Source: Candidatus Bathyarchaeia archaeon (GTDB taxonomy: Archaea; Thermoproteota; Bathyarchaeia; TCS64). Taken from it: 34,626 nt of DNA. Positions 2,257-34,511 of the stretch are shown here, piece by piece. The position numbers and the translations under genes are program-made. Within the stretch, counting starts at the first letter, position 1; the number at the start of each line of letters is the position of its first letter. Below the pieces are notes generated by a model that was not told the DNA's origin, searched no databases, and saw nothing but the letters and a program-made list of their open reading frames with translations. The stretch covers positions 1 to 34,626 of the forward strand of contig JBEKDF010000033.1 in NCBI GenBank assembly GCA_050014495.1. Direction: 5' to 3'.

Positions 2257-2371
2257 TGCCCTGTCCCTAAATTCAGAATAAACTTATCTTAACAGTGAAG
2301 GGTCCCGTCACCTATGGCGGCAACTAGAGGGGGTCAGTCCGTTAGGACAAGACGAACACGAGGCCCTTGAA
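2257..2371 (+). mobile_element. Left end of an IS4/IS5-like DDE element with the first ~10 transposase codons
   Basis: Terminal motif TGCCCTGTCCCTAAATT matches 30970-30986 and 34512-34528. About 2290-2371 aligns with the reverse complement of ~31677-31762 (LGQDEHEALET vs LGQDEHETLET). Bounded by tracts at 2251-2256 and 2372-2385. Confidence 0.8.
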
Positions 2372-2676
2372 ACGCGTGCGCGCGTCGATGTTCGAGAGTG
2401 TCGCGGGACGCGTCTTGATGTTCATGTCATGTACACCGTTTTCTGAGGTTTTTGTATCGGCGTTACGTAGTTAAAGTGGTTATGACGCGCTTGACTCAAT
2501 ATACTACTCGTTTACTCTTGGTGTGACAGATCCTCTGACAACAAGCCCATAACGGTGAGCGCGCATGCGTTCCTATCGCGGTCTGTCATTGGATCACCGT
2601 CGTGACTGCAGCCTAAGGCTGGACGACCACATTCAGCCCGAGAGGTTTATACATTCGACGGGTGGAAATGCAATTC

Positions 2677-3123
2677 ATGAGCGAAACCGAAAAGAGCGTC
2701 CCCCACGAACAGCTTCTCGTCTTCACAGGCCTGCTTGCCGGTTTTTCGTTTACAGCGTTGATGCTGATGCTGTAGTCCCCCGGGTCGTTCCGTGAGCTGA
2801 TCGGGCCAACGTATTCTGACGCCTACTTCGTCCTTCTGGTGAGCATACTAGCAATCGTTTCCACGGACCTGGTTTTCTGCAGCATCGGAATGTCACTTGC
2901 CGCGGCGGGATCGGACCCCTACGGGAGGCTGTGGAGCTTCAACGGCGTAACCTTCTACATTGGGTTTTTCGGGCTGTTGCTGGTCATTCCTCTCCTAGTC
3001 CTCCCCGTATCTCTCGTCACTGGCTTGACGGTCTTCGTGTTCGAGTTATTGTTTGGAGTCTGGCTCTTCAAGCGGGCTCCAAAGGTGCCGTTGAGGTCCC
3101 CCTATCACGAGCCTAACAATTGA
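2677..3123 (+). pseudogene. Multi-pass membrane protein (~148 codons) interrupted by one in-frame TAG
   Basis: ATG at 2677 gives MSETEKSVPHEQLLVFTGLLAGFSFTALMLML, then TAG at 2773-2775, then the same frame continues into track ORF 2839..3123. Confidence 0.65.
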
Positions 3124-3382
3124 CTATGGTGCGCGCGCTGTTTCCAAGCCCTCACAAGAACCCAAGCCGCGACAAATCGGCTATTATCGAACCGACAGAT
3201 ATCAAGAATGTAACAAGGTCAGATTTTGTCAGAGGGTTGAGAAGAAATACTCACCCAAAGATGCCGCTGATTAGAAAAACACTCAGTCCGCGCGCGCGTT
3301 CCCCAGCGCGCGCGTCTCTCGATTAGAACCTCTAATCTGCAATCGATAAATAGTCGTTTTTGTTAGAGTTTATTGACGCTGT

Positions 3383-3508
3383 ATGAGCGATGATGAGCTT
3401 AGATTGGCCTTCTTCGGGGTGGGGTTAACCCTTGCATTTCTCGGCCTGAGGTTTGCGCTGAGCGGGGATTTTGATAAGGTTAAAGACTATCTACGAATCA
3501 AAAGATAA
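3383..3508 (+). CDS. Small single-TM protein (41 aa)
   Basis: Manual translation MSDDELRLAFFGVGLTLAFLGLRFALSGDFDKVKDYLRIKR*; flanked by tracts at 3306 and 3511-3529. Confidence 0.5.
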   Translation: MSDDELRLAFFGVGLTLAFLGLRFALSGDFDKVKDYLRIKR

Positions 3509-3529
3509 GATGCGCAATACGCGTGCGCA

Positions 3530-3543
3530 GTGGGTAGCTCACA
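3530..3543 (+). mobile_element. 14-bp remnant of an IS200/IS605 right end
   Basis: GTGGGTAGCTCACA is identical to 32077-32090; the upstream hairpin arm is replaced by TACGCGTGCGCA. Confidence 0.6.
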
Positions 3544-4963
3544 CGTGAAGTCCCATGAGTCTAAGAAATGGCAGGATGATCCCAATGAATATACTAACCC
3601 CACCCAGGAGCTTTAAATAAAGATCTGAAAAGTTATTCGACACAAGTACTTGGAACGTCCTCCCATACACCAACTGACCAGTCTCCTTATCCTTCACCGA
3701 CACGACTATCGGCTTGTTCCCATTCTCCTTAACCTCGAAACAGAACCAGATAATACGCGCATCCTCCAAAATATGCGACATAAAACCAACGATATCCTGC
3801 TGGTGATCATTCGCCGAATCAGGACCAGATTTAGTGTAGATCGGCAGCGTATCTCCAGCGGGGAGATTAAAATTCCTCACCGGGAGAGTCAAAGTAACCT
3901 CAGAGGTTAAAGGACCGGTTGAGCCGCTCGCATAGCTGACACTGAACGTCTGAGTTTTCGTCGAGTCATTATTATAGAGAAAAACAAAGCACTTGACAAC
4001 CTGACCCTTATTCCTCTCGGGCGTAACCTCAGCATCGATATAATAATTGCTCCCCTTGATGCCTGGGAGGTCGTCCAGTATCTCCACGAATAATCTGTCA
4101 AGAAGTCGGGAGAACTCGGGCACGATTTTCTTGGTCTTGTTAAGTATTATTTTTAGTCGGTTGAACCCAAAAAATGGGTGTTGTTCGATATTCATAATAT
4201 CCTTTCCGGGCTTGAACAACTCGGAGACCTCGCTGCGAACGTCCTCTATTTTAAGCGCTCCGTATATGTTCTGGAACAGTAACACTGTGATCTTGCTGAG
4301 CGCATCCTCAAGATCCAAATCCTCCCTAACGTATCTGGATAAATCGCTGAGATACTCCCTGAATTTTAACCTGTTAAAGGGGTCGATGAACGTCTCCAAG
4401 AAGATGTCCGTTGTGAGCACTGTTGGCCAGTTATCTGGGACGTAGAGCCTCAGTAACTCATCGGGGTCGAGTACGTGCTCCCTCTTAATGATGGAGAAAC
4501 CGAAGGCAATCAGAGCAGATCCCATCGAGAGGTAGATGAAAATGACCTCGGTTGAGGTGCCTCCCAGAAGATACATGGAGAGAGAAGCCGTAGATAATAT
4601 TGTTAGCAGAACCGCAAACTGGGTCTCCTTGACGGAAGTCTCATTTAGCGCCTCAACCCCGATGAGCGATGCGTAGGGTAAGCCTTGTTTTTGGTATCGG
4701 TTGAGTATTTTTTTAAAGAGATAATTCATGACTAGGAAATTCGATAGTATTAGAACCGAGTCTATAACTAGTAAACACAATAATATCGTCACGGCTGCTC
4801 CAATGGGGTCACTCTGTAGAACTAGCCCTAGCTCAGTCGATACGCCGAGGATTATCGCTGCTATTATTGACGCGATTAGGATCGAGGGTAGCCCGATTCT
4901 TCTGTTATATGCTGCCAATATGTGGAGGTATTTATCATCGCTTTTGATGACGTTCAAATCCAA
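3539..4963 (-). CDS. Hypothetical membrane protein (N-terminal TM bundle, soluble domain, C-terminal TM)
   Basis: 474-aa ORF with TTG start and clear hydrophobic segments; no family recognised. Confidence 0.8.
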   Translation of the reverse strand: MDLNVIKSDDKYLHILAAYNRRIGLPSILIASIIAAIILGVSTELGLVLQSDPIGAAVTILLCLLVIDSVLILSNFLVMNYLFKKILNRYQKQGLPYASLIGVEALNETSVKETQFAVLLTILSTASLSMYLLGGTSTEVIFIYLSMGSALIAFGFSIIKREHVLDPDELLRLYVPDNWPTVLTTDIFLETFIDPFNRLKFREYLSDLSRYVREDLDLEDALSKITVLLFQNIYGALKIEDVRSEVSELFKPGKDIMNIEQHPFFGFNRLKIILNKTKKIVPEFSRLLDRLFVEILDDLPGIKGSNYYIDAEVTPERNKGQVVKCFVFLYNNDSTKTQTFSVSYASGSTGPLTSEVTLTLPVRNFNLPAGDTLPIYTKSGPDSANDHQQDIVGFMSHILEDARIIWFCFEVKENGNKPIVVSVKDKETGQLVYGRTFQVLVSNNFSDLYLKLLGGVSIFIGIILPFLRLMGLHV

Positions 4964-5124
4964 TGGTAGTTGTCGTTAACTGTATTTGAAATTTAAGTTG
5001 CGCGTGCTACCTTTGATGCACGCGAGTGCATTTGATCCACCGGTCTAACATGCTCATGAACGCGCGCGCGTTTACTATTCACGTAAGCTTATCACCGGTT
5101 CCTCCAAAACAAATGGGTAGCATT

Positions 5125-5415
5125 ATGTCTAAGGAGAAAAAGGGTACCCTGGCCGTTAAGAAGGAAAAGAAAACAGTGCCAGAAGCAAAAGAACCTGAAC
5201 CCGAAACTATTCAGGATTTCAACCAGATGTTAGATACGCTTCGCAGTGAGATAGTGTGGGATCCCTTCAGGGGATTCGAGTGGCCTGTAGAATACGAGCT
5301 TCCGACGAGGATACCCTATGTTGACGTCATTGACTCAGGTAAGGAGTATGTGGTTAAGGCTGAGCTTCCGGGGTTGAAGAAGGAGAATGTGGAGATTGAG
5401 GTCGGCGCGCGCTAG
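5125..5415 (+). pseudogene. Hsp20/alpha-crystallin small heat-shock protein, 3'-truncated
   Basis: PYVDVIDSGKEYVVKAELPGLKKENVEIEV, then GCGCGCGC (5405-5412) and TAG. The second half of the domain is absent. Confidence 0.88.
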
Positions 5416-5528
5416 ACCCAGCCCTAAAACAGCGTTACAACAACGAACAAATGTATATCATAGGATCAATTGTCGCAATCATCGCTGGTTTTGGCCTACT
5501 CATCTATGGGGCAGCACGCAGTCGCTGA
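5412..5528 (+). pseudogene. Orphan 3' fragment of a membrane protein gene
   Basis: LDPALKQRYNNEQMYIIGSIVAIIAGFGLLIYGAARSR* begins at the 5405 tract; next tract at 5551-5561. Confidence 0.5.
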
Positions 5529-5701
5529 ATGAAACGCTATAAAGAATATTCGTGCGCGCGCTGAAAGTCAACTTTCTATTTTCCATTTAATACGCGCACG
5601 TAGGTTAATCCGGTAGTCATTTTGTGAGCTCGTTTACCCCCTCAGTTTAGCGCGTGTCCGAATTGAAAAGTAGTTATTAACCCTCAGGAGGGTGTATATG
5701 T

Positions 5702-6358
5702 ATGCCATTCTGTCCATTCTGCGGGACACCTGTAAAGGAAAACCACAAGTTCTGCCCAAGTTGTGGCAACCCGCTGGAGCTCGTTCCCCAGATACCGACT
5801 CCAACACCCCAAGCGACACCTACTCCGCAACCCCAGCAGCCACAGCAACCAGCCTCTGCACCTCAGCCAGCCGCAGCGCCTCAACCCCCACAAGTGCAAA
5901 CGACACAGGGGGAGACGATAAGAGAGATTATACCCAACCTAAGCGTCTCTAAGAGCTTCGGCAGAACCGACACCTACAACCTCATAGTCACGGAGAGGAG
6001 AAGCATCTTCGCGAAGCTGACGACCGAGATCATAAATGAAACGGTGAAGATGAGACGCGATAAGGCCGCGGCGGAGGGAAAGGGCTTCTTCGGGAAGTGG
6101 AAGGCCCAGATGCAGGGCTTCAACACCTACACGGACTGGTACAAGGATAAGACACCCGACCAAGCACTGGGTGAGACACCAGGCAACTACGCCATCGACA
6201 ACTCCGCAATGAGAAACATCAAGGTAAAGGAGGACAGCGATGATGATAGCGGCATGGACCTGTACTACATCGAGATAACGACTCCAACGGGGAAGCTTAA
6301 ATTCAAGACACCGTATGACCCCCGGAAACTCCTTCAGGCGGCTTATGGAGGCGCGTAG
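5702..6358 (+). CDS. Zinc-ribbon protein with Pro/Gln-rich linker
   Basis: MPFCPFCG...KFCPSCG ribbon, PQ-rich linker and a globular C-terminal domain. Confidence 0.88.
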   Translation: MPFCPFCGTPVKENHKFCPSCGNPLELVPQIPTPTPQATPTPQPQQPQQPASAPQPAAAPQPPQVQTTQGETIREIIPNLSVSKSFGRTDTYNLIVTERRSIFAKLTTEIINETVKMRRDKAAAEGKGFFGKWKAQMQGFNTYTDWYKDKTPDQALGETPGNYAIDNSAMRNIKVKEDSDDDSGMDLYYIEITTPTGKLKFKTPYDPRKLLQAAYGGA

Positions 6359-6381
6359 TACGAGTCTACCGCATATGCCAA

Positions 6382-6408
6382 AGTCTTATCCCCCAAACCC
6401 AAACCCAA
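6382..6408 (+). repeat. 27-bp direct repeat, copy 1 (IS-terminus-like)
   Basis: AGTCTTATCCCCCAAACCCAAACCCAA, identical to 7390-7416; followed by ATATGCGCGTGCGCA at 6413-6427. Confidence 0.85.
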
Positions 6409-6653
6409 CCTTATATGCGCGTGCGCAACTAAATGATTGAGCTGGATCGGAGACCACCTAACCAGCATCACTTCTTCCGATCCTCCTCTCATTTTTAACC
6501 CGGCACTCTGGGAATCCACCTCTTAATCTCGCCAAGCGTGCCCCTCAGATACTTGGAAGAGTTGAGCTTAGCTTGGTCAAAATATTAAACGAATAAATGA
6601 TTATTAGTGCAATAGTGATTAAATTTATATGTATTTTTATCAAATTATACAAT

Positions 6654-6863
6654 ATGGCCTTTCTTAAACGAATTTATCAAGATGTCCAAGGAGTGAGTTG
6701 TCCATTATGTGGAGCATCTGTATTGAAAGATGCGAGAAATGCAAAAAAGATAACTTATTTCTGCAGCGGAAAAACAACCCACGACCTAACAAATAACAAG
6801 ACCATAAAGGCCTTTTTAATTGGAGAAGCACTAACCCGAGATCACAAACGCGCGCAAATCTAG
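6654..6863 (+). pseudogene. Small CxxC protein, probably 3'-truncated
   Basis: MAFLKRIY...CPLCG...FCSG; ends shortly after ACGCGCGCA (6848-6856). Confidence 0.45.
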
Positions 6864-6915
6864 AACGAATGAGGATGTTGAAATAGCACAATGTAAAAAT
6901 GGCTATTGAGGGATC

Positions 6916-7167
6916 TTGAAGGCATACATTCTTGTTAACACTGAGCTAGGGGAAACGTCGGAGGTCGTCAAAGAATTGAAAGGGATTATTGAGATCAAGA
7001 GTGTCTACGTCGTTTACGGCATCTACGACATAATAGTTGAAGTGGAGGCTGACACTATGGACAAGGTGAAGGAGATAGTCTTCAACAAGATCAGGCGCCT
7101 CAATTACGTGAAGAGCACTATCACACTCATAGCTTATGATGAGCCAATGCGCGAGCAGGTTCTATAA
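6916..7167 (+). CDS. Lrp/AsnC ligand-binding (RAM) domain protein
   Basis: KAYILVN...VYVVYGIYDIIVEVEA...IRRLNYVKSTITLI. Confidence 0.92.
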   Translation: MKAYILVNTELGETSEVVKELKGIIEIKSVYVVYGIYDIIVEVEADTMDKVKEIVFNKIRRLNYVKSTITLIAYDEPMREQVL

Positions 7168-7197
7168 AGAAAAGTCGACCATATTAACTCGGCATGC

Positions 7198-7344
7198 ATG
7201 AAGAAAGATCCTATCTGCGGTAAGATGGTAGATGAAAAGAAGATAAAATGGAGAAGTGATCACAAAGGTAAGAAATACTACTTTTGCAGCGAAAAACACA
7301 AACTAACATTTGATGAGAACCCAAAACGATTCGCAGCTCCATAA
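7198..7344 (+). CDS. YHS/TRASH domain protein (48 aa)
   Basis: Manual translation MKKDPICGKMVDEKKIKWRSDHKGKKYYFCSEKHKLTFDENPKRFAAP*; DPxCG and YYFCS motifs. Confidence 0.92.
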   Translation: MKKDPICGKMVDEKKIKWRSDHKGKKYYFCSEKHKLTFDENPKRFAAP

Positions 7345-7389
7345 TGTGCGCACAACGGCAGATTTTTTTAAAACTTTGAATTACTCCAT

Positions 7390-7416
7390 AGTCTTATCCC
7401 CCAAACCCAAACCCAA
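7390..7416 (+). repeat. 27-bp direct repeat, copy 2 (IS-terminus-like)
   Basis: Identical to 6382-6408. Confidence 0.85.
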
Positions 7417-7603
7417 GAACTTTCACTAATTCTTATCTATTCTCATCTACTATCTTACTTTCTTATTCTTTCCATCACTACACCACATCGTATCACGTAT
7501 ATCGCGTAATCTACAGAAAAAAAATACCTATTATAGAACTACGAATAGAAAGTTTAAAAATATAATCACGTTAGGACTATCTATCATAAATATATTGAGT
7601 TCA

Positions 7604-8523
7604 CTATTTTCTCAAACCTTTTATAACTTCTAACATTTTTTTATTAAATATTTCTTGACTTCGATTTATCCCATAGTTGATAAAATCAGCGGGAACATAA
7701 TCTTGGAAAATTGAAGGTATAATTGATCTGTCTCCTCTAAGTATTATGGGTACAAATCTTTTTCCATCATAAATTCTTTGTCGCATTATTGTATTTTTTT
7801 CTATTTGTGCCCAGCCTATTTCTTCAAAATAATCTGGCGTCCAAATCATTATCGATTTATCATAACTATCAAGCATACTGGTAATCTCCTTATTTAGAGA
7901 ATCACCGGGTACAATATTTAATTCATCAAATAAAATATCAAATTCGATGCTATGATATTTCTTTAAATAATTAACAACTTCATTAGCAAACCACTGATCA
8001 ATTTTCTTATAACTAATTAATATTTTTAATTTTTTACTGATATGTTTTTTTCACTGACCTTTACAATTGGTAATTTATTATATTCTAATCCAGAAAACGG
8101 TTCATTTAATGCTGTTGGTACAGCCTTTTTTGGTTTAAATATATATTTTGAGATTTTTTCACGATTTTTAATGGAAATTCTACCAGGTGGAATCATAAGT
8201 TTTGTTAAAAAATCTTTTCTATCATATTCCATAGCTACATCAATAGCCTCACTTATTTGATATTCTTCAAAAAAACTAGGCCAATTAAAAAGAAATTGTA
8301 AATGATCTATTGACCACAAACCTCTCGATTCCTTAATAACTTCAAATACAAATTCTGATTTATACAATTTCGGTACGTCAATAATTTTTTTTAAACGATT
8401 AGCATAGCCATTTCGAGCTAAATATCTAATTGCTCCAATAACTTCATCATCTGAATGTTTTAGATAATTTGTTATTATATATAAAGCTAAGTTTAAACTT
8501 TCATCCACCATATTAGTTATCAA
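7604..8523 (-). CDS. TIR-domain protein (helical N-terminus plus C-terminal TIR) split by a -1 frameshift at ~8029-8051
   Basis: The -1 frame reads KKLKILISYKKIDQWFANEVVNYL...LFDELNIVPGDSLNKEITSMLDSYDKSIMIWTPDYFEEIGWAQIE, a TIR_2 pattern with the catalytic Glu. It has no start codon ahead of the domain and overlaps the end of ORF 8026..8523. Very AT-rich segment. Confidence 0.8.
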
Positions 8524-8687
8524 TGAAAATGCACAAACCTTTCAAACTATCACCAGATTATAACTCTAAATAATGTTTATCCTAAAGCGATCTGCGCTCG
8601 CGCAAAGAATACAAATCCCCTAAAAAACAAGAAATAGGTCATAATTTTTAATATCGGAATATTGTATTTTCGCGCGCGCGAAATAAA

Positions 8688-8927
8688 TTGGTTCACGAAT
8701 ACAAGGTTGAAAGAAAGCTTCAGGAGCAGGGTGGCTCCTACTTCGTCGTCCTTCCCAAGATCTGGATTGAGTCTCTAGGTCTGAAGGAAGGCGACCCTAT
8801 GTCAATCTTTTTTAATGGAATAATCAAAGTGGTGCCTTCCGATAAACAAACTATCGGGGAGGATAGAAAGATCAACAAATTGGGAGGGCATCCTCATGCG
8901 TCTCCAAGACAGCTGTATCCCATGTGA
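8688..8927 (+). CDS. AbrB/MazE/SpoVT-type DNA-binding protein
   Basis: RKLQEQGGSYFVVLPKIWIESLGLKEGD. Confidence 0.85.
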   Translation: MVHEYKVERKLQEQGGSYFVVLPKIWIESLGLKEGDPMSIFFNGIIKVVPSDKQTIGEDRKINKLGGHPHASPRQLYPM

Positions 8928-9009
8928 AGCAGTCGAGAACCCTTCTCCTACCGCGCACGAAAATATTATTAGTCAGTTATTGACTTCTAATTTTAGGGAG
9001 ATTTTAAAA

Positions 9010-9195
9010 ATGCCAGGAGAAATAGGTAAAAAAGGAGATATTAGACAATATCGTGAAGACGCACAAATAGGTAATGTTGCACCTGATATTCAAAAACACT
9101 TTGGTTACCGTTCTGACAAGACAGTTAAGGCAGTCCTTGAAGAGAACCATGTTACGTCTATCGCTAAGTTAAGAGAAAAAATAGGATTAAAATAA
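9010..9195 (+). CDS. Small basic hypothetical protein (61 aa)
   Basis: MPGEIGKKGDIRQYREDAQIG...; lies between tracts at 8952 and 9217. Confidence 0.55.
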   Translation: MPGEIGKKGDIRQYREDAQIGNVAPDIQKHFGYRSDKTVKAVLEENHVTSIAKLREKIGLK

Positions 9196-9291
9196 GATTT
9201 ACGAGATAAAACAGACTGCGCGCGCGACGCCTCGATATTAATGGTAAGGATTTTATGTATTGGGGTTTAATGAACAGATGGAGAGACTTTT

Positions 9292-9717
9292 ATGTCATTC
9301 TTGGATGAAACAAAAAAGAAGGCTGAGGAAGCTGAAAATAAAGCCTCTGAAGAAGTAAAGGAAGTCGCGGGTGCGCGCATGTCTTTTTGTTCGAACTGCG
9401 GTAAGGAGTTGGACTCTGAATCGAACTTCTGCCCCAAATGTGGTGTGAGAACAGAGAATGGAGTAAAAGCGGGTGTGGCTATCCCTTGGGTCTCGGACCC
9501 ACATTTGAGGCAGGAATTGGATGTTGCGCTGCAGAAGGCTTCTAAAGCTATTGATGAAGGTGTGAAGATCGTGCGGGAGACCTTGAGGGAGGTAGCGGGT
9601 GAGGTAGAGAAGGGCGTGAAGCAGGCTCGTACGAGTGTGCCCGTCAGCTGTCAGAACTGTGGTCAGGAAAATACGAAATTTGCAAAGTTCTGCAGTAGGT
9701 GTGGCAAGGAGCTCTAG
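9292..9717 (+). CDS. Double zinc-ribbon protein, apparently fused in frame to an unrelated 27-codon N-terminus
   Basis: The ribbon gene MSFCSNCG..FCPKCG...CQNCG..FCSRCG starts at ATG 9379, directly after GTGCGCGC (9371-9378). Confidence 0.85.
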   Translation: MSFLDETKKKAEEAENKASEEVKEVAGARMSFCSNCGKELDSESNFCPKCGVRTENGVKAGVAIPWVSDPHLRQELDVALQKASKAIDEGVKIVRETLREVAGEVEKGVKQARTSVPVSCQNCGQENTKFAKFCSRCGKEL

Positions 9718-9741
9718 GTTCGCTATCTCCTATGCGCGCGC

Positions 9742-9942
9742 AATATCGGTTTCACGAAAGACCTCTCTGAGCAGACACGCTTATTAGATGAGCTAAAGCG
9801 CTCTGAGGAGGAGTACAAAACTATTATTGATTCTGGGCTTGATGGTGTATCTATTACAGTAGAGGAAAAGTTGGTTTTTGTCAGTAAAGTAATGGTCGCT
9901 ATGCTTGGTTACTCCAAGGAGGAATTATTGGGGGGAGATATC
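9742..9942 (+). pseudogene. Internal fragment of a PAS-domain sensor
   Basis: NIGFTKDLSEQTRLLDELKRSEEEYKTIIDSGLDGVSITVEEKLVFVSKVMVAMLGYSKEELLGGDI; no start codon; tracts at both ends (9731-9742, 9942-9950). Confidence 0.85.
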
Positions 9943-10097
9943 GCGCGCGCCTCCTGAACGTAGCGATGAGGGCGTACATCGAGCGCGGATTTAAAAGACC
10001 ATCTAGTCATCTTTCACCCTACGAGCGCATAGTTAAGAACCCGCCTATATAATAATTCAAACCAAGCGGTATCAGTAACCGGGTCATGTGGTTTCCA

Positions 10098-13729: not shown

Positions 13730-13845
13730 CAAACGCACTACTCTTGATCGCGCAGGCAGTAGAGTGAACAAGCGCGCGCGGTGTTGGGTGTCCTATGTGT
13801 TGGCGCGTGCGCATACTCGAAAACATGCATTTACTTTATAGCGCT

Positions 13846-13895
13846 CGCGCAAAAGTTTCTGTCAGCACTCAATTTTATTCAAATTACAGCTCGGT
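13846..13895 (+). repeat. 50-bp dispersed repeat, copy 1
   Basis: CGCGCAAAAGTTTCTGTCAGCACTCAATTTTATTCAAATTACAGCTCGGT; one mismatch to 18422-18471; followed by (GC)5. Confidence 0.9.
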
Positions 13896-14248
13896 GCGCG
13901 CGCGCCCTGGAAGGAGGGAGTGCAATGGAACCCTAGCAACGAAAACTGCGTAGCTGGAAAAATACTTCTAAATCAAGATAATTCTAGAAACAGCTAGGTG
14001 ATGAATGGAGAGCTGTTCGAAGTAAACGTGATAAAATAAATCTGAATCTATTTGCGCACGCACTCTATTATTAAATGATGCGGACGAGAATGAATGTGAG
14101 ATTATGGTCCTGTTTTCAGCAGACGCGTTTAATCTTGGTTGGAGCTATCATTATCTCGATGCGCGAGTGTGCGCTGTGGCGTAATCAAACACCAGAAAAG
14201 TTCTTTTATTCTTCACTGAACACTCACTATATTACTCGGTGAATTGGA

Positions 14249-15784: not shown

Positions 15785-15805
15785 TCAGCTCACCTATGAC
15801 ATTGG

Positions 15806-18241: not shown

Positions 18242-18421
18242 AAAAGTATACAGGGTCCATTCTTCCCTCCCGTAATGTACCATGGGTATGTTGGCTATGT
18301 GGATGTAGCTTTGCCTAGAGTCTTGCTTTCGATAACGTAAACTAATTTTGAAGAATTATCTCCAGATCCTGACACCCTCGCTGGCAAGATACCTTGAGAC
18401 TAGAGATGCAACGTCTGCGCG

Positions 18422-18471
18422 CGCGCAAAAGTTTCTGTCAGCACTCAATTTTATTCAAATTATAGCTCGGT
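18422..18471 (+). repeat. 50-bp dispersed repeat, copy 2
   Basis: Matches 13846-13895; starts within TGCGCGCGCGCA (18416-18427). Confidence 0.9.
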
Positions 18472-21913: not shown

Positions 21914-22072
21914 TTGGAGAAAAATGTCCAAATCATACCTCTTGGCTATGAGATCGACTGGGTGGTGAAGCCGTTCGAGGACCCCAACGGGTTCAGAGCC
22001 AATCGAGTGTACCTCCTCTCAACATTTGAGGGTGTGGATGCCAGGCATGTGCGCGTGCACAATATTTCCTAA
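21914..22072 (+). pseudogene. N-terminal fragment of a DUF6293-like archaeal regulator
   Basis: MEKNVQIIPLGYEIDWVVKPFEDPNGFRANRVYLLS; cut at GCATGTGCGCGTGCACA (22045-22061). Confidence 0.7.
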
Positions 22073-22146
22073 TTAGGAGTTTAATATGTATTTCAAATCA
22101 ACAAATTCTATTAAATCATGAGCTATAGCACCCTAATGGACATGGT

Positions 22147-24054: not shown

Positions 24055-24152
24055 CCAAATAATCAACTCTTTAGAAAGTTAATCGAAAGCATAAAATACA
24101 TTATTTTAAATGGATAAATATATAGGTAAAAATATCATATTCATTACAATGC

Positions 24153-25073: not shown

Positions 25074-25186
25074 AGTCAAATTTAGGCTGCTTTTTTGCAT
25101 TTGCTTTCTTCACAGGTATTTCGAGTGTGTGCGTGCGCATTCAATTACGGGTAGAATAACCTTTTAGGTGGATACCACCGGTTCCG

Positions 25187-26197: not shown

Positions 26198-26595
26198 TGC
26201 GGGTGCCTCCTGGCCTCCTCGGCGAAGTCGATCATCAGGTAGTAGATGTGGTCGATGTGCTGCTTGGAGGCCGACAGTATCGCTCCGGCGACGAGAGCCT
26301 TTCTGCCCGGTGTGATGTCGAGGGCCGTCTCGTAGCCCTCATCCTTAAGCCTCTTCAGGTCGGTGCCGATCATGTTGCCCGACGCTATGAAGTCGCCCTC
26401 GTGGACCACCTTTACCTCCACTGTTGGTTGAAAGCCATACTCACTGGAGATGCTGCTTATGTCCTCAGGAATGTTTTGTGTTTCACTGTTTCCCTCCGCG
26501 TAGATCGTTACCTTGTCGGGGTGGTAGCCCTTCTCCTCGAGGACGGCGTAGTAGGAGTTGATAAGGGCCCAGGTGGAGCGGCCGAGACAGAGCAT
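26194..26595 (-). CDS. Stand-alone CARF-domain protein; native 5' end lost at ~26586
   Basis: LGRSTWAL (strand 1/loop) and ALDITPGRK CARF signature. The first three codons (MLC) come from the antisense strand of the AOR fragment. Confidence 0.75.
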   Translation of the reverse strand: MLCLGRSTWALINSYYAVLEEKGYHPDKVTIYAEGNSETQNIPEDISSISSEYGFQPTVEVKVVHEGDFIASGNMIGTDLKRLKDEGYETALDITPGRKALVAGAILSASKQHIDHIYYLMIDFAEEARRHPQ

Positions 26596-28038
26596 CTAAT
26601 CAGAAAAGAGACGGGCTTCAGCGACACCGCCATAGTAGCCGAGGGACCAGCATCGGAGAACCTAGTAAAATACTCTGCCGTGACTCATACCGCTCACCGC
26701 GCCGCTGGAAGAACCGGCTTGGGAGCCGTCATGGGCTCCAAGAAGCTGAAGGCGATCGCGGCAAGAGGCACCAATAAGGTCGAGGTCGCCTCCCCCGAGA
26801 AGGTGAGAGAGCTCCAGAAGAAGATCACTAAGGAGACATTCGAGAGCAAATTCACCTCCACCCTCCGAGAGCACGGCCAGATCGGATTCCTCCTAGACCT
26901 AAACAACGACGGGATTCTCCCCACCAAAAACTTCCAAAGCGGCGTCTTCCAAGGAGCCAACAAGATCACGGGGCAAACACTGACGAAACAATTGCTGAAG
27001 ACGAGAGAATCATGCCCCAGATGCCCAGTAGCATGCAAACGAGTCGTGGAAGTCAAAGAAGGGCCCTACGCCCCCGTCTCACCCGAGTACGGGGGACCAG
27101 AGTATGAAAGCACCGCCGCCCTCGGCTCGTTACTATGCATAGACGATTTAGAAGCCATATGCCGAATGAACATGCTATGCAACGCATACAGCCTTGACAC
27201 GATCTCAACCGGAGTCTGCATCGCGTTCGCGATGGAGTGCTACGAGAACGGACTCCTATCCAAGGAAGACACCGGGGGACTGGAGCTAAACTTCGGAAAC
27301 GCCGACGCCGCCATCAAGCTACTCGAGATGATCTCATCAAGGGAGGGCCTAGGCAACCTATTAGCTGAGGGAGTGAAAAAAGCAGCGGAGAAAATCGGGC
27401 GAGGATCAGAGAAATACGCAGTAGAAATAAAGGGCCTGGAGATCCCCATGCATGAGCCCAGAGGAAAAAAGGGCCTCGCCGTAATGTATGCGACCTCCAA
27501 CAGAGGCGGATGCCACATGCAGAGCATGCACGACACAGACATCGAAGCCCCCAACATGGCCCCCGAAATAGGCATGACCAAGGCACTAAACCGATTAGAC
27601 ACCTCCAGAGAGAAGGTCCTATACCTGAAGAAGACAGGCGACTGGACCGCCATGATCAACTCAATGGGGCTCTGCTCGAACATCTACTGGTTCGGAGCCG
27701 TCTACTACAGACCAAGCCAACTAGTCGAGATACTGAACGCAGTGACGGGCTGGGACTACACAGTGGAGGACTTCATGACGACGGGCGAAAGGATCAACAC
27801 CTACTGCCGAATGTTCAACATCAGAGAAGGCATAACAAAAAGGGATGACAGCCTACCACCACGCTTCATGGAACCCCTCATAGGGGGACCCACCAACGGA
27901 CAGTTCATCTCAACCAGGGAAATCGAATCCATGCTCGGTGACTACTACGAGATATGTGGCTGGGATAGAGAAACTGGAATCCCTAAGAAGGAGAGGCTAG
28001 CAGAACTAGGCTTAGTGAACACTGAAATTGGTTCATAA
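26581..28038 (+). pseudogene. aor: Tungsten aldehyde:ferredoxin oxidoreductase (AOR family), 5'-truncated
   Basis: GPASENLV, AAGRTGLGAVMGSKKLKAI, CPRCPVAC, GPEYES, LDTIS, GCH. The N-terminal part is absent; track-ORF residues before 26581 are antisense CARF sequence. Confidence 0.88.
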
Positions 28039-28232
28039 CTTCTAATTCACTCAGCGCGCGCATCGATCTAAAAAAATAATTAATTATCTAGAACGTATAG
28101 GTGCTATGCATGCGCGCATAATAATATCCTATTTCATTACAATATTTGCCTCAAGTAATGTTTTTCTGTGACAAATCCCATAAACAATTCACGTATATGA
28201 CGCGATAATGCGATTTCGTAAGAGGTGATGCG

Positions 28233-30416
28233 ATGGGTGATGAGACTAAGAAGGATTATAATAACAATTTTGGTAAAAACGGGGCAGAATTCTCGAAGAG
28301 TGATTTCGAAGAGACTATTCTAAATTTGAATGATCCGAGATTGTATATTAATAGAGAGCTTAGCTGGCTCAAGCTACATGAGAGGATTCTTGAGGAGAGC
28401 CGAGACCCTAATCATCCTCTTCTAGAACGTGTGAAATTTCTCGCAATATGTGGGGGCAATCTCGATGAATTCTTCATGGTTCGAGTTTCAGCGCTAGATA
28501 AACAGGTTATGAATGGTTCCTTTAAGCTATCCCCAGATGGTATGACTCCTCATGAGCAGCTTGTAGCCATACGCCGTGAGGTTTTATCGATTCTCCGGCT
28601 TCACGAGGATGTTTGGAATCGCGAACTCCTACAAGAGCTCGCGGAAGAGGGAATCCGTATAATGCGAGTTGTCGATCTAAACGAGAGTCAACAGATTGCT
28701 GTAAGAAAGTATTTTGAGCTCCAAATTTTTCCTGCGTTAACTCCTCTGGCACTGGATAGCGCAAATCACTTCCCATTCATAAGTAACTTGAGTCTGAACC
28801 TGGCTGTAATTTTACGTGACAAGAAAAAACATGAGTGGCTAGCAAAAGTAAAAGTTCCAACTAACATCTTCCCGCGGCTTCAGCAGTTACAACTAGAAGA
28901 ATACGAGGAAGATGTGGATAGACGTGTTGCAGATCATGGTATCACCCTACTTTTTCTCGAGGATATTATCGCTTCAAATTTAGATCAGTTATTTCCCGGT
29001 ATAGATATCGTTTCAGCATACCCGTTCAGAATAACACGTGACGCAGAAGTTGAAATAAGCCTAGACCAGACGAGTGACCTCTTAAACGTCATCGAAGAGA
29101 GTATCAAGACACGCCGATCCGGTAAATGTGTACGCCTCGAAGTCGATAAATCGATGCCTGAATCACTCAGAGAAGTTTTCATGAAGAACATGGGTCTAAC
29201 ACCTGACGCAGTCTACGCATTCGACGGACCACTTGGATTCATTGACTTTTGGCAATTATTGAAGATCGACCGCCCAGACCTAAAAGACAAGACCTTTCTC
29301 CCCTTCATGCCCACTAAACTCCGTCAAGGAAGAGATTATTTCAAAGCCATTTCAAAGCGCGATTATGTCCTGTACCATCCCTATGATAACTTTAATGTAT
29401 TGATCAATCTACTGAAACAAGCCGCTGTCGATCCCGGTGTATTGGCGATAAAAATCACCCTTTACAGGATAGATAAAAAGAGTCCCATCGTTGATGCTCT
29501 AAGGCAAGCAAGCCGACACAGAAAGAATGTTACAGCACTTGTCGAATTGAAGGCCAAGTTTGATGAGAAGAATAACATCAACTGGGCTAAGCGGTTAGAG
29601 CATGCAGGTGTACATGTAGCCTATGGTTTCCCAGATCTCAAGGTCCATGCGAAACTGTGCCTTATCGTAAGAAAAGAGGGAGATAAAATAATCAGGTATA
29701 GTCACCTTAGCTCTGGGAATTACAACTCCGTTACATCTCGCATCTATGGGGACATCGGATATCTGACTGCCAACCAGGAGATTGGCACAGAGGTCAACAA
29801 CCTATTCAACTACCTTACCGGCTACAGCCAGAAAGATGATTATAGTTGCCTTCTAGTGGCACCGAAGACGCTCAAAAAGGAGATTATTAGTCGAATAAAT
29901 AGGGAGATAGAGAGGCATCAAAAAGATGGAAATGGGTACATCGCAATTAAGGTTAACAACCTCGATGACAAGGACATCATTAAGACTCTGTATTTAGCGA
30001 GTCAGGCAGGAGTAAGAGTTGACCTGAATATCCGTGCTCTCTGTTGTCTTCGCCCAGGCATTAAAGGTGTCAGCGATAATATTAGGGAGATTAGCATCAT
30101 AGGGAGATTCCTTGAGCATTCAAGAATTTATTATTTCAGGAATGGAGGAGAGGAGGAGGTGCTGCTTGGAAGCAGCGACCTCATGCCAAGAAACCTCGAG
30201 AAGCGAATCGAGGTGTTGTTCCCCGTCCCTGATCCGCGACTTCGTAGATTAATTATAGATAAAATGTTGAATGTTCACCTAAATGACACGGTTAAAGCGA
30301 GAGAGTTGATGCCGGATGGATCCTGGAAACGCGTGAAACCGATCGAAGGTAAGGAACCAATTAATTCACAGCAGTGGCTGATAGACCATAAAGGTGAATG
30401 GCACAGCAACCGATAA
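28233..30416 (+). CDS. ppk1: Polyphosphate kinase 1
   Basis: YINRELSWL, NLDEFFMVRV, HFPFISN, HPYD, ELKAKFDE, KVHAK, GRFLEHSR, DLMPRNL; GAGGTGA RBS. Confidence 0.97.
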   Translation: MGDETKKDYNNNFGKNGAEFSKSDFEETILNLNDPRLYINRELSWLKLHERILEESRDPNHPLLERVKFLAICGGNLDEFFMVRVSALDKQVMNGSFKLSPDGMTPHEQLVAIRREVLSILRLHEDVWNRELLQELAEEGIRIMRVVDLNESQQIAVRKYFELQIFPALTPLALDSANHFPFISNLSLNLAVILRDKKKHEWLAKVKVPTNIFPRLQQLQLEEYEEDVDRRVADHGITLLFLEDIIASNLDQLFPGIDIVSAYPFRITRDAEVEISLDQTSDLLNVIEESIKTRRSGKCVRLEVDKSMPESLREVFMKNMGLTPDAVYAFDGPLGFIDFWQLLKIDRPDLKDKTFLPFMPTKLRQGRDYFKAISKRDYVLYHPYDNFNVLINLLKQAAVDPGVLAIKITLYRIDKKSPIVDALRQASRHRKNVTALVELKAKFDEKNNINWAKRLEHAGVHVAYGFPDLKVHAKLCLIVRKEGDKIIRYSHLSSGNYNSVTSRIYGDIGYLTANQEIGTEVNNLFNYLTGYSQKDDYSCLLVAPKTLKKEIISRINREIERHQKDGNGYIAIKVNNLDDKDIIKTLYLASQAGVRVDLNIRALCCLRPGIKGVSDNIREISIIGRFLEHSRIYYFRNGGEEEVLLGSSDLMPRNLEKRIEVLFPVPDPRLRRLIIDKMLNVHLNDTVKARELMPDGSWKRVKPIEGKEPINSQQWLIDHKGEWHSNR

Positions 30417-30487
30417 AACCGGGCCCTTTTGTAGACAGGGAATGAGGCAAATAGATAGTCTACTCCACTTCCTTGAATCGCGCGCGC

Positions 30488-30604
30488 CTTTTTCGCGTAA
30501 AGAGGAAGCCTGACAACATCAGAAGAGGCTGAAGAAGCCCCATTATTATCCCCGAGGTTAAGGCAAACCGACTGCATGAAGGCAAGGGAGCCAAAGTCAC
30601 TCAT
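30488..30604 (-). pseudogene. Possible N-terminal gene fragment cut at a (GC)n tract
   Basis: ATG 26 bp downstream of the 30631..30888 gene; the frame hits CGCGCGCGC (30479-30487) and then reads antisense into the ppk1 region. Confidence 0.35.
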
Positions 30605-30630
30605 GATCTTATACTAATGAGCACCCGAGA

Positions 30631-30888
30631 TTATTTCGCGTTGTAGAAAGTATCCTCCACCACGCCTTGCTTCATTACTTGTTTGACTACATGCCCTTCA
30701 TTTACAAGGTTCTCCAAGGCATTACGAACCATCTGGACACCTATAGCATATCCACCTGCTTTCCCAAGAAGAAGACCCGCACCAGCTGTCCCGGAAAAGT
30801 TCGCGATCTGAAACACAGTAAATGAGGTGCCACGATTCTCCTTTAGATAAGTGAGGATTCGCTCCTCGAACGCGTCCATGTTGACCAC
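30631..30888 (-). CDS. Small winged-helix-like protein
   Basis: EERILTYLKEN...FTVFQIA...VRNALENLVNEGHVVK. Confidence 0.7.
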   Translation of the reverse strand: MVNMDAFEERILTYLKENRGTSFTVFQIANFSGTAGAGLLLGKAGGYAIGVQMVRNALENLVNEGHVVKQVMKQGVVEDTFYNAK

Positions 30889-30969
30889 TCTAAACTACAA
30901 ATAACCATTATTTTTATGATATTTAATTCTATGTAATGGATACTTCATGTGATAGAGTGGGATGCGCGC

Positions 30970-31801
30970 CGGCCCGTCCCTAAATTAAATACTCTAGAAC
31001 AACAACCACCAACAAAACCCAACAATCAACCCCAACGAAGATCCAACACCCATAAAACCCCACTGACAAACCACACCACCAGCAAGACGACTGTAAAAAC
31101 GACACAGACAAGCCCAGCACCCACTAACAACGGCCCACCCCAACCCGAGACGCCGGCCGTCACACGTTGAAGAACGTAGGCGACAACGCCTTATCCGACC
31201 TGCCCAGATTCTCCGCCGCCTCCCGATTCAACACGCAGCACAACACGCTAAGCAGCGCATACACCGACACGTTCAGCAGACCCCTCACCCTGTTCACCGT
31301 CAACCCATACTGGTTCTTCACAAAGGCGAACAGCGCCTCAACAGCGGGCCTCCTACGATACAACTCCACCAGATCCTCCGGGCCATGAGTCCTGAACCTC
31401 CGGTCCACCCGAAGCACATCCTCACCCCGCCTCTGGCCAGCCGTATAAGGAATAACCGAGTCCTCCACCAGGCCCCTCACCCTCCCGCTGCTGTACTGGC
31501 TATCAGCGATCAGACACCTCAGCTGGGCACCCACCCTCGATAGGACCATTCGGCTCCTCTCCACCAGCGTCGAAGCGTGCCTCTTCTCGTTCTCGTTCGC
31601 GCGCGCGGTCCGGTGGTGTGGTAACATCCGAGGAGTTGCTGTTGGGCAATGCTTAAGTCGACGTTTTTGAAGAGTGTTTCAAGGGTCTCGTGTTCATCTT
31701 GTCCTAAGTGAACTCACCTCCTCTGGTTGGGCAGACCGTTGGGGGACGAGACCCCAACTGTATTCATCAGGTTTGGAAACCCTTAACCTTTAGACGGGAT
31801 C
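30970..31801 (-). mobile_element. IS4/IS5-like DDE insertion sequence with a large internal deletion
   Basis: Right end CGGCCCGTCCCTAAATT. C-terminal transposase 31160-31597 has ADSQY and the YREK signature YRRRPAVEALFAFVK. N-terminal ~33 codons (31707-31608, LGQDEHETLETLFKNVDLS...YHTTGP) lie in another frame. The parts are joined at CGCGCGCGCG (31598-31607). Left boundary is approximate. Confidence 0.88.
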
Positions 31802-31810
31802 ACTGTAACC

Positions 31811-31978
31811 ATGTTCGTCTTCAACGGTGACATCGGGGTAATCCTGATCGTACTTGGCATAATACTCATGGCGGTGGCCGCTATGGTGAAGCAGTTCCGT
31901 GGACTCAGTTCTGTGGGGAGACTATGTCTGATCATCGGCGCCGTCATCTTCATTCTGGAGCTGATTCTAAGAATCTAA
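31811..31978 (+). CDS. Small two-TM membrane protein (55 aa)
   Basis: Manual translation MFVFNGDIGVILIVLGIILMAVAAMVKQFRGLSSVGRLCLIIGAVIFILELILRI*. Confidence 0.7.
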   Translation: MFVFNGDIGVILIVLGIILMAVAAMVKQFRGLSSVGRLCLIIGAVIFILELILRI

Positions 31979-32012
31979 TTTACAATCAGTTCCCCAGAAA
32001 GCGCGCGCGTGC

Positions 32013-32090
32013 TCCACCCAGCTCAGTGATGTTGGGTGAGTCGCCTCGGTGAATCAGGAAGCCCACCTCTTTAGAGGTGGGTAGCTCACA
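32013..32090 (+). mobile_element. Right end of an IS200/IS605 (tnpB-type) element
   Basis: GAATCAGGAAG, hairpin CCCACCTCT-TT-AGAGGTGGG (32062-32081), then TAGCTCAC, the typical right-end layout. Tracts at 32001-32012 and 32107-32113. Confidence 0.82.
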
Positions 32091-32183
32091 GATTAAAAAA
32101 TACTCTCGCGCGCTAGCCTCCACAATTTTTTAAACCGCTCAGATAATCCAAAGAGCACAGTAGCGAAGGTAAGGCGAAGGTAA

Positions 32184-33317
32184 ATGAAGCCACTCGATGG
32201 ATTGAGGGTCCTGGATCTTACACAGGCGCAGGCGGGTCCGATGTGCACGATGTTCCTAGCTGATATGGGCGCTGACGTAATCAAGATTGAGCCCCCCTGG
32301 GGGGAGATGACTAGGCGCTTCCCACCACTCGTCAACGGGGTAAGCCCTTACTACCTCTACCTAAACAGGGGAAAGAGAGGGATCACCCTCAACCTGAAGA
32401 GCGAGAAGGGTATCGAGATCTTCAAGAAACTGGTCAAGCTGTCGGACATCGTAGTCGAGAACTTTAGCCCAGGCACCATGGACAAGATGGGAATTGGATA
32501 CGATGCGCTAAGCGACATCAATCCAAAGATATTATTCGCCTCCATCTCCGGCTTCGGGCAGACCGGCCCCCACTCCCAGAGACTGTCCTTCGACCCAATC
32601 GCCCAGGCATCCAGCGGCTACATGGAGCTCACCAGAATAAAGATCGACCCCGACGGCCCACCAGTCTACCCGCCCGAAGCAATAGCGGACACAATCCCAG
32701 CATTGTTCTGCCTAGTTGGAGTCCTATCAGCAATACACCACAGAGACAAAACAGGCGTAGGCCAGAGGATCGAGTTAGCCCAGGTGGACTCAATGATATC
32801 CGTGATGCCCTCAATATCCTTCCACATACAGGCCGGCATCACCTTCTCCGAATCACTGAAGAAGTATGCGTTGTCCGTCGAAGAGATCTACAAGGCAAAG
32901 GATGGCTACATCGTCTTGACCGTACCGGGCGAAATGCAGGACAGACTTGCGCAGATGATTGGCGTCGAACCACATGAGGTTGACAGCCAGAAAGTCAGGA
33001 GATGGGTAGAGGATAAAACTGTGGATGAGGCGGTCCACCTCCTAGAGAAGGCGAGACTGCCGGTCTCACGCGTCCTAGGCCTCGACGAAGTGATCAGCGA
33101 CCCCCAGGTAAGAGCCCGCGAGATGATCGTGAGACTGGAAGACCCCGTTGTTGGAGAGGTGAGGATACCAGGTTTCCCGGTCAAGTTCTCGGAGACACCA
33201 ACGAATGTAGAGAGGACCGCACCTACCCTGGGCGAACATAACCAGGAGGTGCTCACCACACTTCTTGGCCTAAGCCCGGAGAAAGTTAAAAGCCTAAAGG
33301 AAGAGGGTGTCCTTTAA
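32184..33317 (+). CDS. Family III CoA-transferase (CaiB/BaiF)
   Basis: PLDGLRVLDLT, GADVIKIEPP, LNRGKR, VENFSPG, SISGFGQTGP, APTLGEHN. Confidence 0.96.
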   Translation: MKPLDGLRVLDLTQAQAGPMCTMFLADMGADVIKIEPPWGEMTRRFPPLVNGVSPYYLYLNRGKRGITLNLKSEKGIEIFKKLVKLSDIVVENFSPGTMDKMGIGYDALSDINPKILFASISGFGQTGPHSQRLSFDPIAQASSGYMELTRIKIDPDGPPVYPPEAIADTIPALFCLVGVLSAIHHRDKTGVGQRIELAQVDSMISVMPSISFHIQAGITFSESLKKYALSVEEIYKAKDGYIVLTVPGEMQDRLAQMIGVEPHEVDSQKVRRWVEDKTVDEAVHLLEKARLPVSRVLGLDEVISDPQVRAREMIVRLEDPVVGEVRIPGFPVKFSETPTNVERTAPTLGEHNQEVLTTLLGLSPEKVKSLKEEGVL

Positions 33318-33374
33318 TGCTCGTGTGTCTGTACGCTGCGCGCGCGAGAACTCCTCGTCATGCGCGCGCGCACG

Positions 33375-33553
33375 ATCTCGTCGTTTGGTACCTCCTTTAG
33401 ATCGATGAACTTGAGCTTGTGTCCCTCATCCAGCACCTTCTGGACAATCACCCTTACCTCCTCAAGAGACGGCACGACGCCTCCACCCCCCGTTGAGAGG
33501 GAGGTGCTGCCAATCTGGTAATCTAAAACATCCTCTAGTGTCAAGTATTTCAT
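33375..33553 (-). pseudogene. DUF917-family protein, N-terminal ~60 codons only
   Basis: MKYLTLEDVLDYQIGSTSLSTGGGG...IDLKEVPNDEIV; cut at CATGCGCGCGCGCACG (33359-33374). Confidence 0.75.
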
Positions 33554-33714
33554 CGGTGTTATCAACTATCCTCGGCATCAATATTGTATATAACAATTCT
33601 GAGCGATATTATTGACAGCATATTTCGATCTCGTGGCGTCTACTCTATGCAACTCATTTTAGTCGAGGCATCATAGCTAATGATATAAACCTCCAATCAA
33701 TCGTTGCATGTAAC

Positions 33715-34383
33715 ATGAAGAAGATTGGCATACTGACGATAGGACAATCTCCCAGACCAGACGTCGTGGGGGAGTTCCTGCGCGTCCTCGGCAGCGACTA
33801 CAAGATCATTGAAAGGGGCGCGCTCGACGATTTCTCTATCGAGGAGCTGAGGAGCAGGAAGGTGGCGCCCGGAGAGAGAATACTCGTCACAAAGCTCAGG
33901 GACGGGGAGGAGATCAAGGTATCGCATGACCTCGTCATATCCAACATACAGAAGGGCATCGACTACCTCGAGGGAAAGACGGTGGACATCATCCTCCTCC
34001 TTTGCACGGGCAATTTCCCCGAGTTCAAGTCCAAGTGTCTCGTAGTCCAACCCTCCGACATCGTCAGGGGGGTAGTCAAGGGGTTGCTCAGAAGCGGCAA
34101 GCTGGCCGTGGTCGTCCCAGCGAGGGAGCAGATACCGAAGGGTAAGTCGGACGCCTTCGGGAAAGATGTCGAAGTCTACTACGATACTGCCTCCCCGTAC
34201 GGGTCGATGGCCGAGTTCAAGGAGATGGCGGCCAGGATCTCGAGGGCGAACGTGGATCTGGTGTTCCTCGATTGCATGGGCTTCACACATGAGATGAAGC
34301 AAGTGGTAAAGGAGACGACGGGAAAACCCGTCATCCTATCAAACGCGCTGGTTGCACGCGTCCTGCAGGAGATCGCCGAGTAG
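33715..34383 (+). CDS. AroM-family protein
   Basis: LTIGQSPRPD, GALD, LVTKLRDG, LLCTGNFP, ASPY, LDCMGF. Confidence 0.92.
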   Translation: MKKIGILTIGQSPRPDVVGEFLRVLGSDYKIIERGALDDFSIEELRSRKVAPGERILVTKLRDGEEIKVSHDLVISNIQKGIDYLEGKTVDIILLLCTGNFPEFKSKCLVVQPSDIVRGVVKGLLRSGKLAVVVPAREQIPKGKSDAFGKDVEVYYDTASPYGSMAEFKEMAARISRANVDLVFLDCMGFTHEMKQVVKETTGKPVILSNALVARVLQEIAE

Positions 34384-34421
34384 CTGCTTTTTGAATCGAT
34401 CATTATAGAGGACGCGCGCGC

Positions 34422-34503
34422 TCCCTGACCCGGCGGCTGCTGATCTGGCTGTCCCCGATCAGGCACCTCAGCCTCGCCTCGGCCCATTCAAGCACCATTC
34501 TAG
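34422..34503 (-). pseudogene. ~80-bp internal fragment of the same DDE transposase family
   Basis: RMVLEWAEARLRCLIGDSQISSRRVRE vs RMVLSRVGAQLRCLIADSQYSSGRVRG in the 31160-31597 copy; tracts at 34412-34421 and 34505-34511. Confidence 0.85.
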
Positions 34504-34511
34504 CCGCGCGC

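Follow-up and report, generated by a model that had tools for sequence, protein, structure and literature searches.

Several described systems place short stretches of new DNA at ends or junctions. In filler or N-nucleotide addition by TdT, Pol mu, Pol lambda and Pol theta, as it is generally understood and as set out in the available part of PMC9226535, new bases lie between two donor ends with 0-3 bases pairing. In archaeo-prokaryotic non-homologous end joining (NHEJ), Ku, a LigD polymerase domain (POL), a phosphoesterase (PE) and a ligase join breaks with little template, and LigD POL possesses terminal transferase activity, as stated in the accessible part of PMC8656161. Telomerase and DRT10 (bioRxiv 10.1101/2025.10.16.682844, in part) extend an end with short repeats that continue its last bases in register, and DRT3 makes an alternating purine-pyrimidine repeat, poly(GT/AC), de novo (PMC13174585 and PMC13314766, in part). 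Here, we analyse a contig of 34,626 nucleotides from a Candidatus Bathyarchaeia archaeon (hereafter the window), which carries numerous short tracts of alternating G and C at sites where unrelated pieces of DNA meet, as well as insertion sequences (IS) of the IS5/IS1182 type, whose ends border GCGC and whose footprints are a further system for comparison.

Our data indicate that the tracts fit filler-DNA end joining and that they are unlikely to be products of Ku-LigD NHEJ or transposon footprints. They differ from the filler made by the four polymerases above in being a fixed self-complementary alternation of ~6-11 new bases, rather than random sequence or a copy of nearby sequence, and in having an archaeal host. 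They differ from the products of archaeo-prokaryotic NHEJ, the operon for which is present in this genome, in that the trait is independent of Ku and LigD across relatives, and no (GC)n product appears in the available part of PMC8656161. Telomerase, DRT10 and DRT3 serve as analogies only: the product here is a 10-base chromosomal linker and not a long array, and neither a reverse transcriptase in the genome nor a template RNA in the comparison with a relative was found, whereas DRT3, as far as the accessible parts of its sources describe it, is a phage defence based on reverse transcriptase that makes free DNA, the repeat here being GC and standing at chromosomal junctions. As to IS footprints, most tracts lack an IS and their donors lack a target, which makes it more plausible that the element exploits tracts. 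New here are the one-base register rule described below, the lack of a target at donor ends and a replicate of the trait in a relative that is independent of Ku. No description of such tracts was found in the literature searched, outside of which lay the majority of subscription journals and of supplements.

The window corresponds to contig C33 of G000, a 3.1-Mb metagenome assembly of 92 contigs from peat runs, the primase, polymerases and gene content of which are archaeal. C-numbers denote contigs of this assembly, G001 onward its relatives (40 compared, 17 of them in the genus) and X-numbers sequencing runs. G021 is a single-contig relative, for which the donor and RNA comparisons covered 1.66 of 2.30 Mb.

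Tracts mark junctions and are missing from intact donors

The alternating octamer GCGCGCGC occurs 27 times in the window compared with a mean of 0.29 in shuffled sequences, none of 100 shuffles reaching 27, and 512 times in the assembly compared with 29 expected from an order-2 model. Throughout the assembly tracts are grouped in islands, and the interiors of open reading frames, which make up 76% of the genome, hold just 13% of 842 tracts. The flanks contain no motif, base composition being flat over 50 nt on either side of 706 tracts, and an integron or recombinase site was rejected because these tracts have no conserved flanks or spacing beyond the core. Inside tracts, AT steps (30 versus 1.8 expected) and TA steps (18 versus 2.5) are in excess, unlike the pattern of CpG decay. 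In-frame tracts within genes were rejected as scars: same-length codon variants exist in all 15 cases in the assembly and in nearly all 28 rows from G002. The tracts at 3521, 5405, 13894 and 18416 are bridged letter for letter by contigs from other runs, none of them carrying a flag as potential source of the assembly, and are, therefore, not assembly seams. For the tract at 2374, no contig among the matches listed has 31 letters on both sides, and no strain-level joint at a tract was seen in the contigs of other runs matched to the stretches, of which X18, X20 and X21 cover a small share only.

The paralog comparison carries the main finding. For 1046 tracts in the assembly, a side was counted where a paralogous copy (the donor) reaches the tract edge; 150 of the resulting 225 sides are tract-free in every paralog, 49 have a tract in all and 26 are mixed, the last two groups being mostly IS termini. 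Both sides are known for 23 tracts, and setting aside five collinear variants and seven tracts that have either an IS end or a shared tract at one of their sides leaves 11 true junctions, at 10 of which neither donor has a tract. Thus, junction bases that come from neither donor, as expected of filler-DNA end joining, are present at these 10 junctions and at sides in G021, where the paralog is tract-free at 12 of 16 non-collinear sides. The proposal in the original prediction that tracts are not inherited from the broken sequence is in this way borne out across the genome; full-length family members bearing the same tract, which it had named as contrary evidence, were found at IS termini alone, and there the tract is the likely target site.

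Most tract junctions connect unrelated pieces. Tracts also seal internal deletions, namely at C14:4044 (320 bp), at C32:2270 (167 bp), at C2:45750 relative to G002 (590 bp) and at 31598 in the window, and a 6-base tract is absent from the donor segments that were lost. Among young low-copy repeats, with an identity of at least 94%, 12 of 30 ends bear a tract, compared with 0.9% of positions; at 90% identity the figure is 20 of 62 and at 85% it is 43 of 169. The original prediction had left it undecided whether tracts are synthesized de novo or arrive with the partner end. Because the donors are tract-free at 10 of the 11 junctions and the deleted segments lack a tract, we favor synthesis de novo; arrival does occur at some sites, namely those at which one flank and its tract are joined to two different partners.

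All sequence strings on which the original prediction built its four internal controls (cases 1 to 4, Table 1) are present in the window where it placed them. Case 1 is confirmed, in that the full-length IS copy on C61 and contigs of three runs read ACTCTTC where the window has GCGTGCGCGCG. Case 2 turned out stronger than proposed, since the right flank of the tract at 13894 also has a tract-free donor (C25, 87% identity; this donor also appears as a loose end in run X12), the eight inserted bases coming from neither donor; the tract that begins both repeat copies (13841-13850 and 18417-18426) had been overlooked. Case 3 fails as a strong control, because a shared sequence of 14 bp is expected by chance in ~4 such pairs in the window; what rescues it is only that the piece at 3530-3543 resembles what we take to be an IS605 right end. 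In case 4, one half does not hold, the right tract being the GCGCGC found next to the IS left end in other copies as well, and the 31160-31597 copy used as its ordinary control is itself cut by a tract.

Table 1. Tracts, broken elements and controls in the window
Feature	Position	Strand	Comparison
Tract with truncated repeat on its left and broken IS110 (left end; gene 223-633) on its right	207-215		Left donor C73 (97.5%) tract-free; second IS110 copy (C9) has a tract on that side
GCGCGC at left end of IS5/IS1182-like element, likely its target site	2251-2256		CGCG follows 22/24 ends of the subfamily
IS left-end fragment, broken after CTTGAAAC (case 1)	2257-2373	+	95% identity to full-length C61 copy, which goes on ACTCTTC
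Tract without counterpart in donor (case 1)	2374-2384		Comparison with C61 copy
Tract preceding 14 bp of an IS605-type end, 3530-3543 (weak control of case 3)	3521-3529		Only 14 bp common with 32077-32090; bridged by X7 contig
Tract joining truncated Hsp20 gene (Pfam) to unrelated piece	5405-5412		Donors C17 (86%) and C89 (82.5%) both tract-free
55-bp repeat copy (case 2), beginning with tract common to other copy	13841-13895	+	96% identity to 18417-18471
Eight inserted bases within 13894-13905 tract	13896-13903		Tract has GT in common with left donor and GC with right donor; bridged by X9 and X11 contigs
Second repeat copy including left tract	18416-18471	+	Goes on TGACTG tract-free; in X18 contig left flank continues without tract
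Tract at right end of second IS copy	30962-30969		Adjoins IS end
IS right part with transposase C-terminus (DDE_Tnp_1)	30970-31597	-	Domain match
Tract sealing likely internal IS deletion of ~470 bp	31598-31607		Donors C9 (91%) and C17 (94%) tract-free; matching segment of three full copies without 6-base tract
IS left piece with intact CTTGAAAC-ACTCTTC, control of case 1	31608-31761	-	93.5% identity to C17
Tract cutting IS605-type end (32012-32090)	32001-32012		97% identical C19 copy continues tract-free
Tract at left end of transposase piece (case 4)	34412-34421		Control just 55/78 identical
Captured transposase piece, diverged subfamily	34422-34503	-	56% amino-acid identity to 31160 copy
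GCGCGC at IS left end (34512-34626)	34505-34511		Common to other copies, hence not a control for de novo synthesis

Other features of the window and the assembly stand beside these. Pairs of tracts only 6 and 12 bases apart are present at 3289-3315 and 33337-33374, and a tract-free junction at 26593-26600 brings a 5'-truncated aldehyde ferredoxin oxidoreductase gene next to a gene on the opposite strand. Separate from the GC tracts are cassette-array-like arrays of short MVDAQ or MVDL genes, each preceded by a conserved ~60-bp repeat (33 linked copies), on contigs C15, C24, C50, C53, C72, C74, C75, C77, C84, C86, C88, C90 and C92; a related repeat is found in the window at 6386-6411 and 7392-7416.

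A one-base register at the joins

The original prediction had proposed that the tract continues a terminal purine-pyrimidine dinucleotide of the donor. In a set of 88 sides with a donor identity of at least 86%, from which collinear variants were dropped, this is the case at 33 compared with 28.4 expected (P=0.18), and the proposal is not upheld. The rule at the join instead concerns the last single donor base. Joins of the type G|G or C|C are absent (0 of 88 versus 11.3 expected; 4 of 144 versus 18 and 0 of 38 versus 4.9 at other identity cut-offs), and the first new base is complementary to the last donor base at 51 of 88 sides compared with 35 expected. The last donor base is in register with the ~6-11 new bases: G is followed by C, C by G, and T mostly by G. 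At 1249 tract edges, from which IS termini were excluded, the same tendency is evident, with T|G at 455 edges versus 270 expected, AT|G at 186 versus 131 and G|G at 111 versus 208; at the edges in G021 the T|G excess is present and the G|G deficit is absent. The donor end is thus kept in register by one base. Addition in register is as in telomerase, and G-T wobble with a (GC)n tail would explain the register as well as a template with AU at its end.

Where 1-4 nt of new letters lie next to the donor, they preserve the alternation in 9 of 16 cases compared with ~3 expected. Letters A or T without a counterpart in the donor open 23 of the 88 junctions. Donor ends are not enriched for a target, GCGC or CGCG being present at 3 of 88 versus 1.2 expected and GC or CG at 14 of 88 versus 11.2. 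Hairpin (P-nucleotide) scars were rejected since, as judged by eye at the 88 junctions, the inserts are not the reverse complement of the donor end; AAAC, for instance, is followed by GCGT and not GTTT.

Relatives, Ku and the insertion sequences at tracts

Tracts recur in most genomes of the family. Among the 40 relatives, octamer counts are 40-402 in 15 of 17 genus genomes and 1 each in G001 and G010; G021 has 250, G022 104 and G024 two, and counts outside the family are 0-28. Ku-LigD was found in the tract-poor G001 and G010 and Ku was not found in the tract-rich G021 and G022, although the GC content of 33-36% in G001 and G010 weakens their half of this contrast. The single contig of G021 has neither a Ku nor a LigD match, yet it has the same type of junction. 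A complete archaeal NHEJ operon encoding LigD polymerase, Ku, a ligase-phosphoesterase fusion and DUF72 lies on C3 of the assembly (L052:5437-9464), and Ku is found in 14 of 17 genus genomes. We do not claim a trait of mixed purine-pyrimidine runs across the class, since the apparent enrichment outside genes in G039 concerns stretches that were chosen for known hits and G036 is not enriched.

The IS5/IS1182-like family, defined by DUF772 and DDE_Tnp_1, has two subfamilies in which CGCG follows 22 of 24 and 14 of 15 ends (36 of 39, four chance hits dropped), and the ends of the copies seen in relatives likewise border GCGC. Letters beyond GCGC differ among identical copies, as expected of a target, and a 4-bp GCGC duplication fits every full-length copy seen, given the terminus that we infer for the element; the fixed distance of the IS end to GCGC and the short duplication are the features of a target site. 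We suggest that these elements, which likely duplicate GCGC, as well as IS110 elements likely use tracts as targets, and because donor ends are enriched for neither GCGC nor GC, we read the IS as users of tracts. Most tracts are without any IS. In the apparent exception on C17, an IS110 sits between the tract and the IS end, and the same joint of IS110 and IS end is present in C48 and in two relatives. This IS110 (C48:5780-7090 and C17:57465-58775; L020; L028) has a structured non-coding left end with GCGCGC and is inserted exactly between the tract and the IS5-like end; the non-coding left end is likely a bridge RNA aimed at the end of another element.

Proposed de novo filler and its rivals

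Combining the donor comparison with the junction rule and the distribution in relatives, we suggest that the tracts are probably de novo (GC)n filler laid down in a Ku-independent end-joining route. In this model, a Ku-independent polymerase would add a short self-complementary (GC)n tail to broken ends and thereby make any two ends joinable; the alternating tail would pair either with a second tail of this kind or with a single G, C or T on the partner end, followed by fill-in and ligation. Such joining would close deletions and capture stray fragments, giving rise to patchwork islands, and the IS5/IS1182-like family and an IS110 may later have taken the scars as targets. A bolder version, which we put forward tentatively and on balance doubt, is that of a dedicated enzyme for end joining by a universal linker, in its boldest form a polymerase of the primase type working in the manner of telomerase, with a short GCGCGCAU-like RNA as template for the bases added to any broken end, such that all ends would be mutually sticky, captured DNA would build up the patchwork islands, and IS5-like and IS110 parasites would home to the scars. 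Our guess at the writer, which is a guess and not a result, would be a primase-type polymerase, either the core PriS or a divergent enzyme that uses an RNA template.

Several observations weigh against reading the tracts as de novo filler. The donors are paralogs 80-100% alike and the true parents are not among them; 20 of 36 fillers are at least 5 nt long and, at the same time, non-alternating; and the excess of AT steps inside tracts is partly heterogeneity from tract to tract, with a ratio of 1.78 at distance 1 and 1.33 at distance 2. In a systematic scan of the assembly with multicopy cassette-repeat regions masked, only 2 of 14 simple collinear deletions bear a tract, and tract joining is therefore one route among several. 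Approximately six pairs outside IS have the same flank and tract with different partners and, thus, tracts are also reused. The best co-occurring gene is the transposase, with matches in 11 of 17 genus genomes and none in G001, G010 and G024, and no polymerase tracks the trait across relatives. PolX was rejected as the writer, being canonical, present also in tract-poor families and without an active-site difference between rich and poor genomes; PolB2 was rejected because it is present in the tract-poor G001 and G010, and extra primases because of their patchy distribution. Reverse transcriptase, PolY and Prim-Pol were not found in the assembly. Separately, families f1 and f4 seem to be without the ~790-aa PolB of the other families searched, a larger PolB and, in many cases, PolB2 being kept.

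Two individual primases were also rejected as the writer. The primase encoded on C20 is present in 5 of 17 genus genomes (strong matches being confined to 4 of 17 other genus genomes) and has no GC template. It is a 439-aa protein with a multi-stem conserved, RNA-like nucleotide element in its coding linker (L073:1985-2095; C20:26543-26636, minus strand), at codons 241-275, where third positions are 55-60% invariant compared with ~10% elsewhere; the element is found in 5 genomes and 13 metagenome loci, has no Rfam match, and a 238-aa relative of the primase stops just at it. A mobile primase on C53 does not track the trait. It belongs to a 268-aa family (L054:7058-7864), pieces of which are on C13, C22, C24, C32 and C51, most fragments being bounded by a tract on one side or on both. 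Four profiles over the assembly and the examined part of G021, motif scans and a 30-sequence profile over 41 genomes brought up no additional primase that tract-rich genomes have in common; a more divergent family would escape such searches. An RNA with a GC template common to the assembly and the covered part of G021 was not found, and two structured RNAs with GCGCGC were rejected as template, one being the IS110 non-coding end and the other part of another mobile piece; neither has an Rfam match.

The adverse observations on reuse and on the transposase come together in an alternative that we regard as unlikely, in which old tracts are cut repeatedly, likely by a tract-targeting IS transposase or as fragile alternating DNA, and the tract-bearing end then joins a foreign end by one-base pairing. 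Two rounds would leave both neighbours foreign and capture of a fragment would double the tract; this corresponds to arrival with the partner end in the original prediction. The GCGC at the IS ends of the assembly and of all relatives' copies seen, the co-occurrence of IS and tracts, the reuse of flank and tract with new partners and the clustering in islands all agree with it, in-register joins on every side fit annealing to a pre-existing overhang, and one G021 donor with a 100% identical flank has a purine-pyrimidine run at the break. However, simple internal deletions would each need at least three such events, yet the donor segments lack even a 6-base tract, and one gene copy contains two tract-sealed deletion junctions at a distance of 66 bp. 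The foreign A or T letters that open 23 of the 88 junctions also speak against re-cutting, as does G021 with 348 tracts in 1.66 Mb but two transposase matches, and the alternative gives no account of how the first tracts arose.

Were tracts instead the excision footprints of the IS5/IS1182-like family, i.e. a duplicated GC or GCGC target with terminal bases left on exit, the GCGCGC at nearly every IS end would be accounted for, but the donor would have to contain the target, and donor ends lack the corresponding enrichment. Moreover, no pure insertion into contiguous donor sequence is present among the 23 tracts with both sides known or relative to 298 kb of G002, and the variable letters past GCGC are target-like; this improbable reading is already largely refuted. 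That the canonical Ku-LigD of this archaeon writes the tracts by the terminal transferase activity of its LigD polymerase would be in line with the complete operon; we hold it to be very improbable given that Ku accompanies a single octamer in each of G001 and G010 and was not found where octamers are abundant (G021 and G022), G021 also being without a LigD polymerase match. An assembly or library artefact might be suspected in a metagenome assembly of 92 contigs. This has practically no chance of being correct: seven other runs supply contigs that match the stretches, and several of these contigs span tracts without any other letter, which refutes it for the bridged tracts, and the trait recurs throughout most of the family.

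If the tracts are written as de novo filler, abundant uncultured archaea would repair breaks and take up DNA without homologous recombination or Ku-LigD joining. Each event would leave a readable mark, so that the tracts would form a countable record of illegitimate joining, and some mobile elements would be specialised on repair scars. The enzyme would have a sharp signature in vitro, a self-complementary tail of ~10 nt in register with the last base, and a polymerase able to render any pair of ends sticky would also be useful as a tool.

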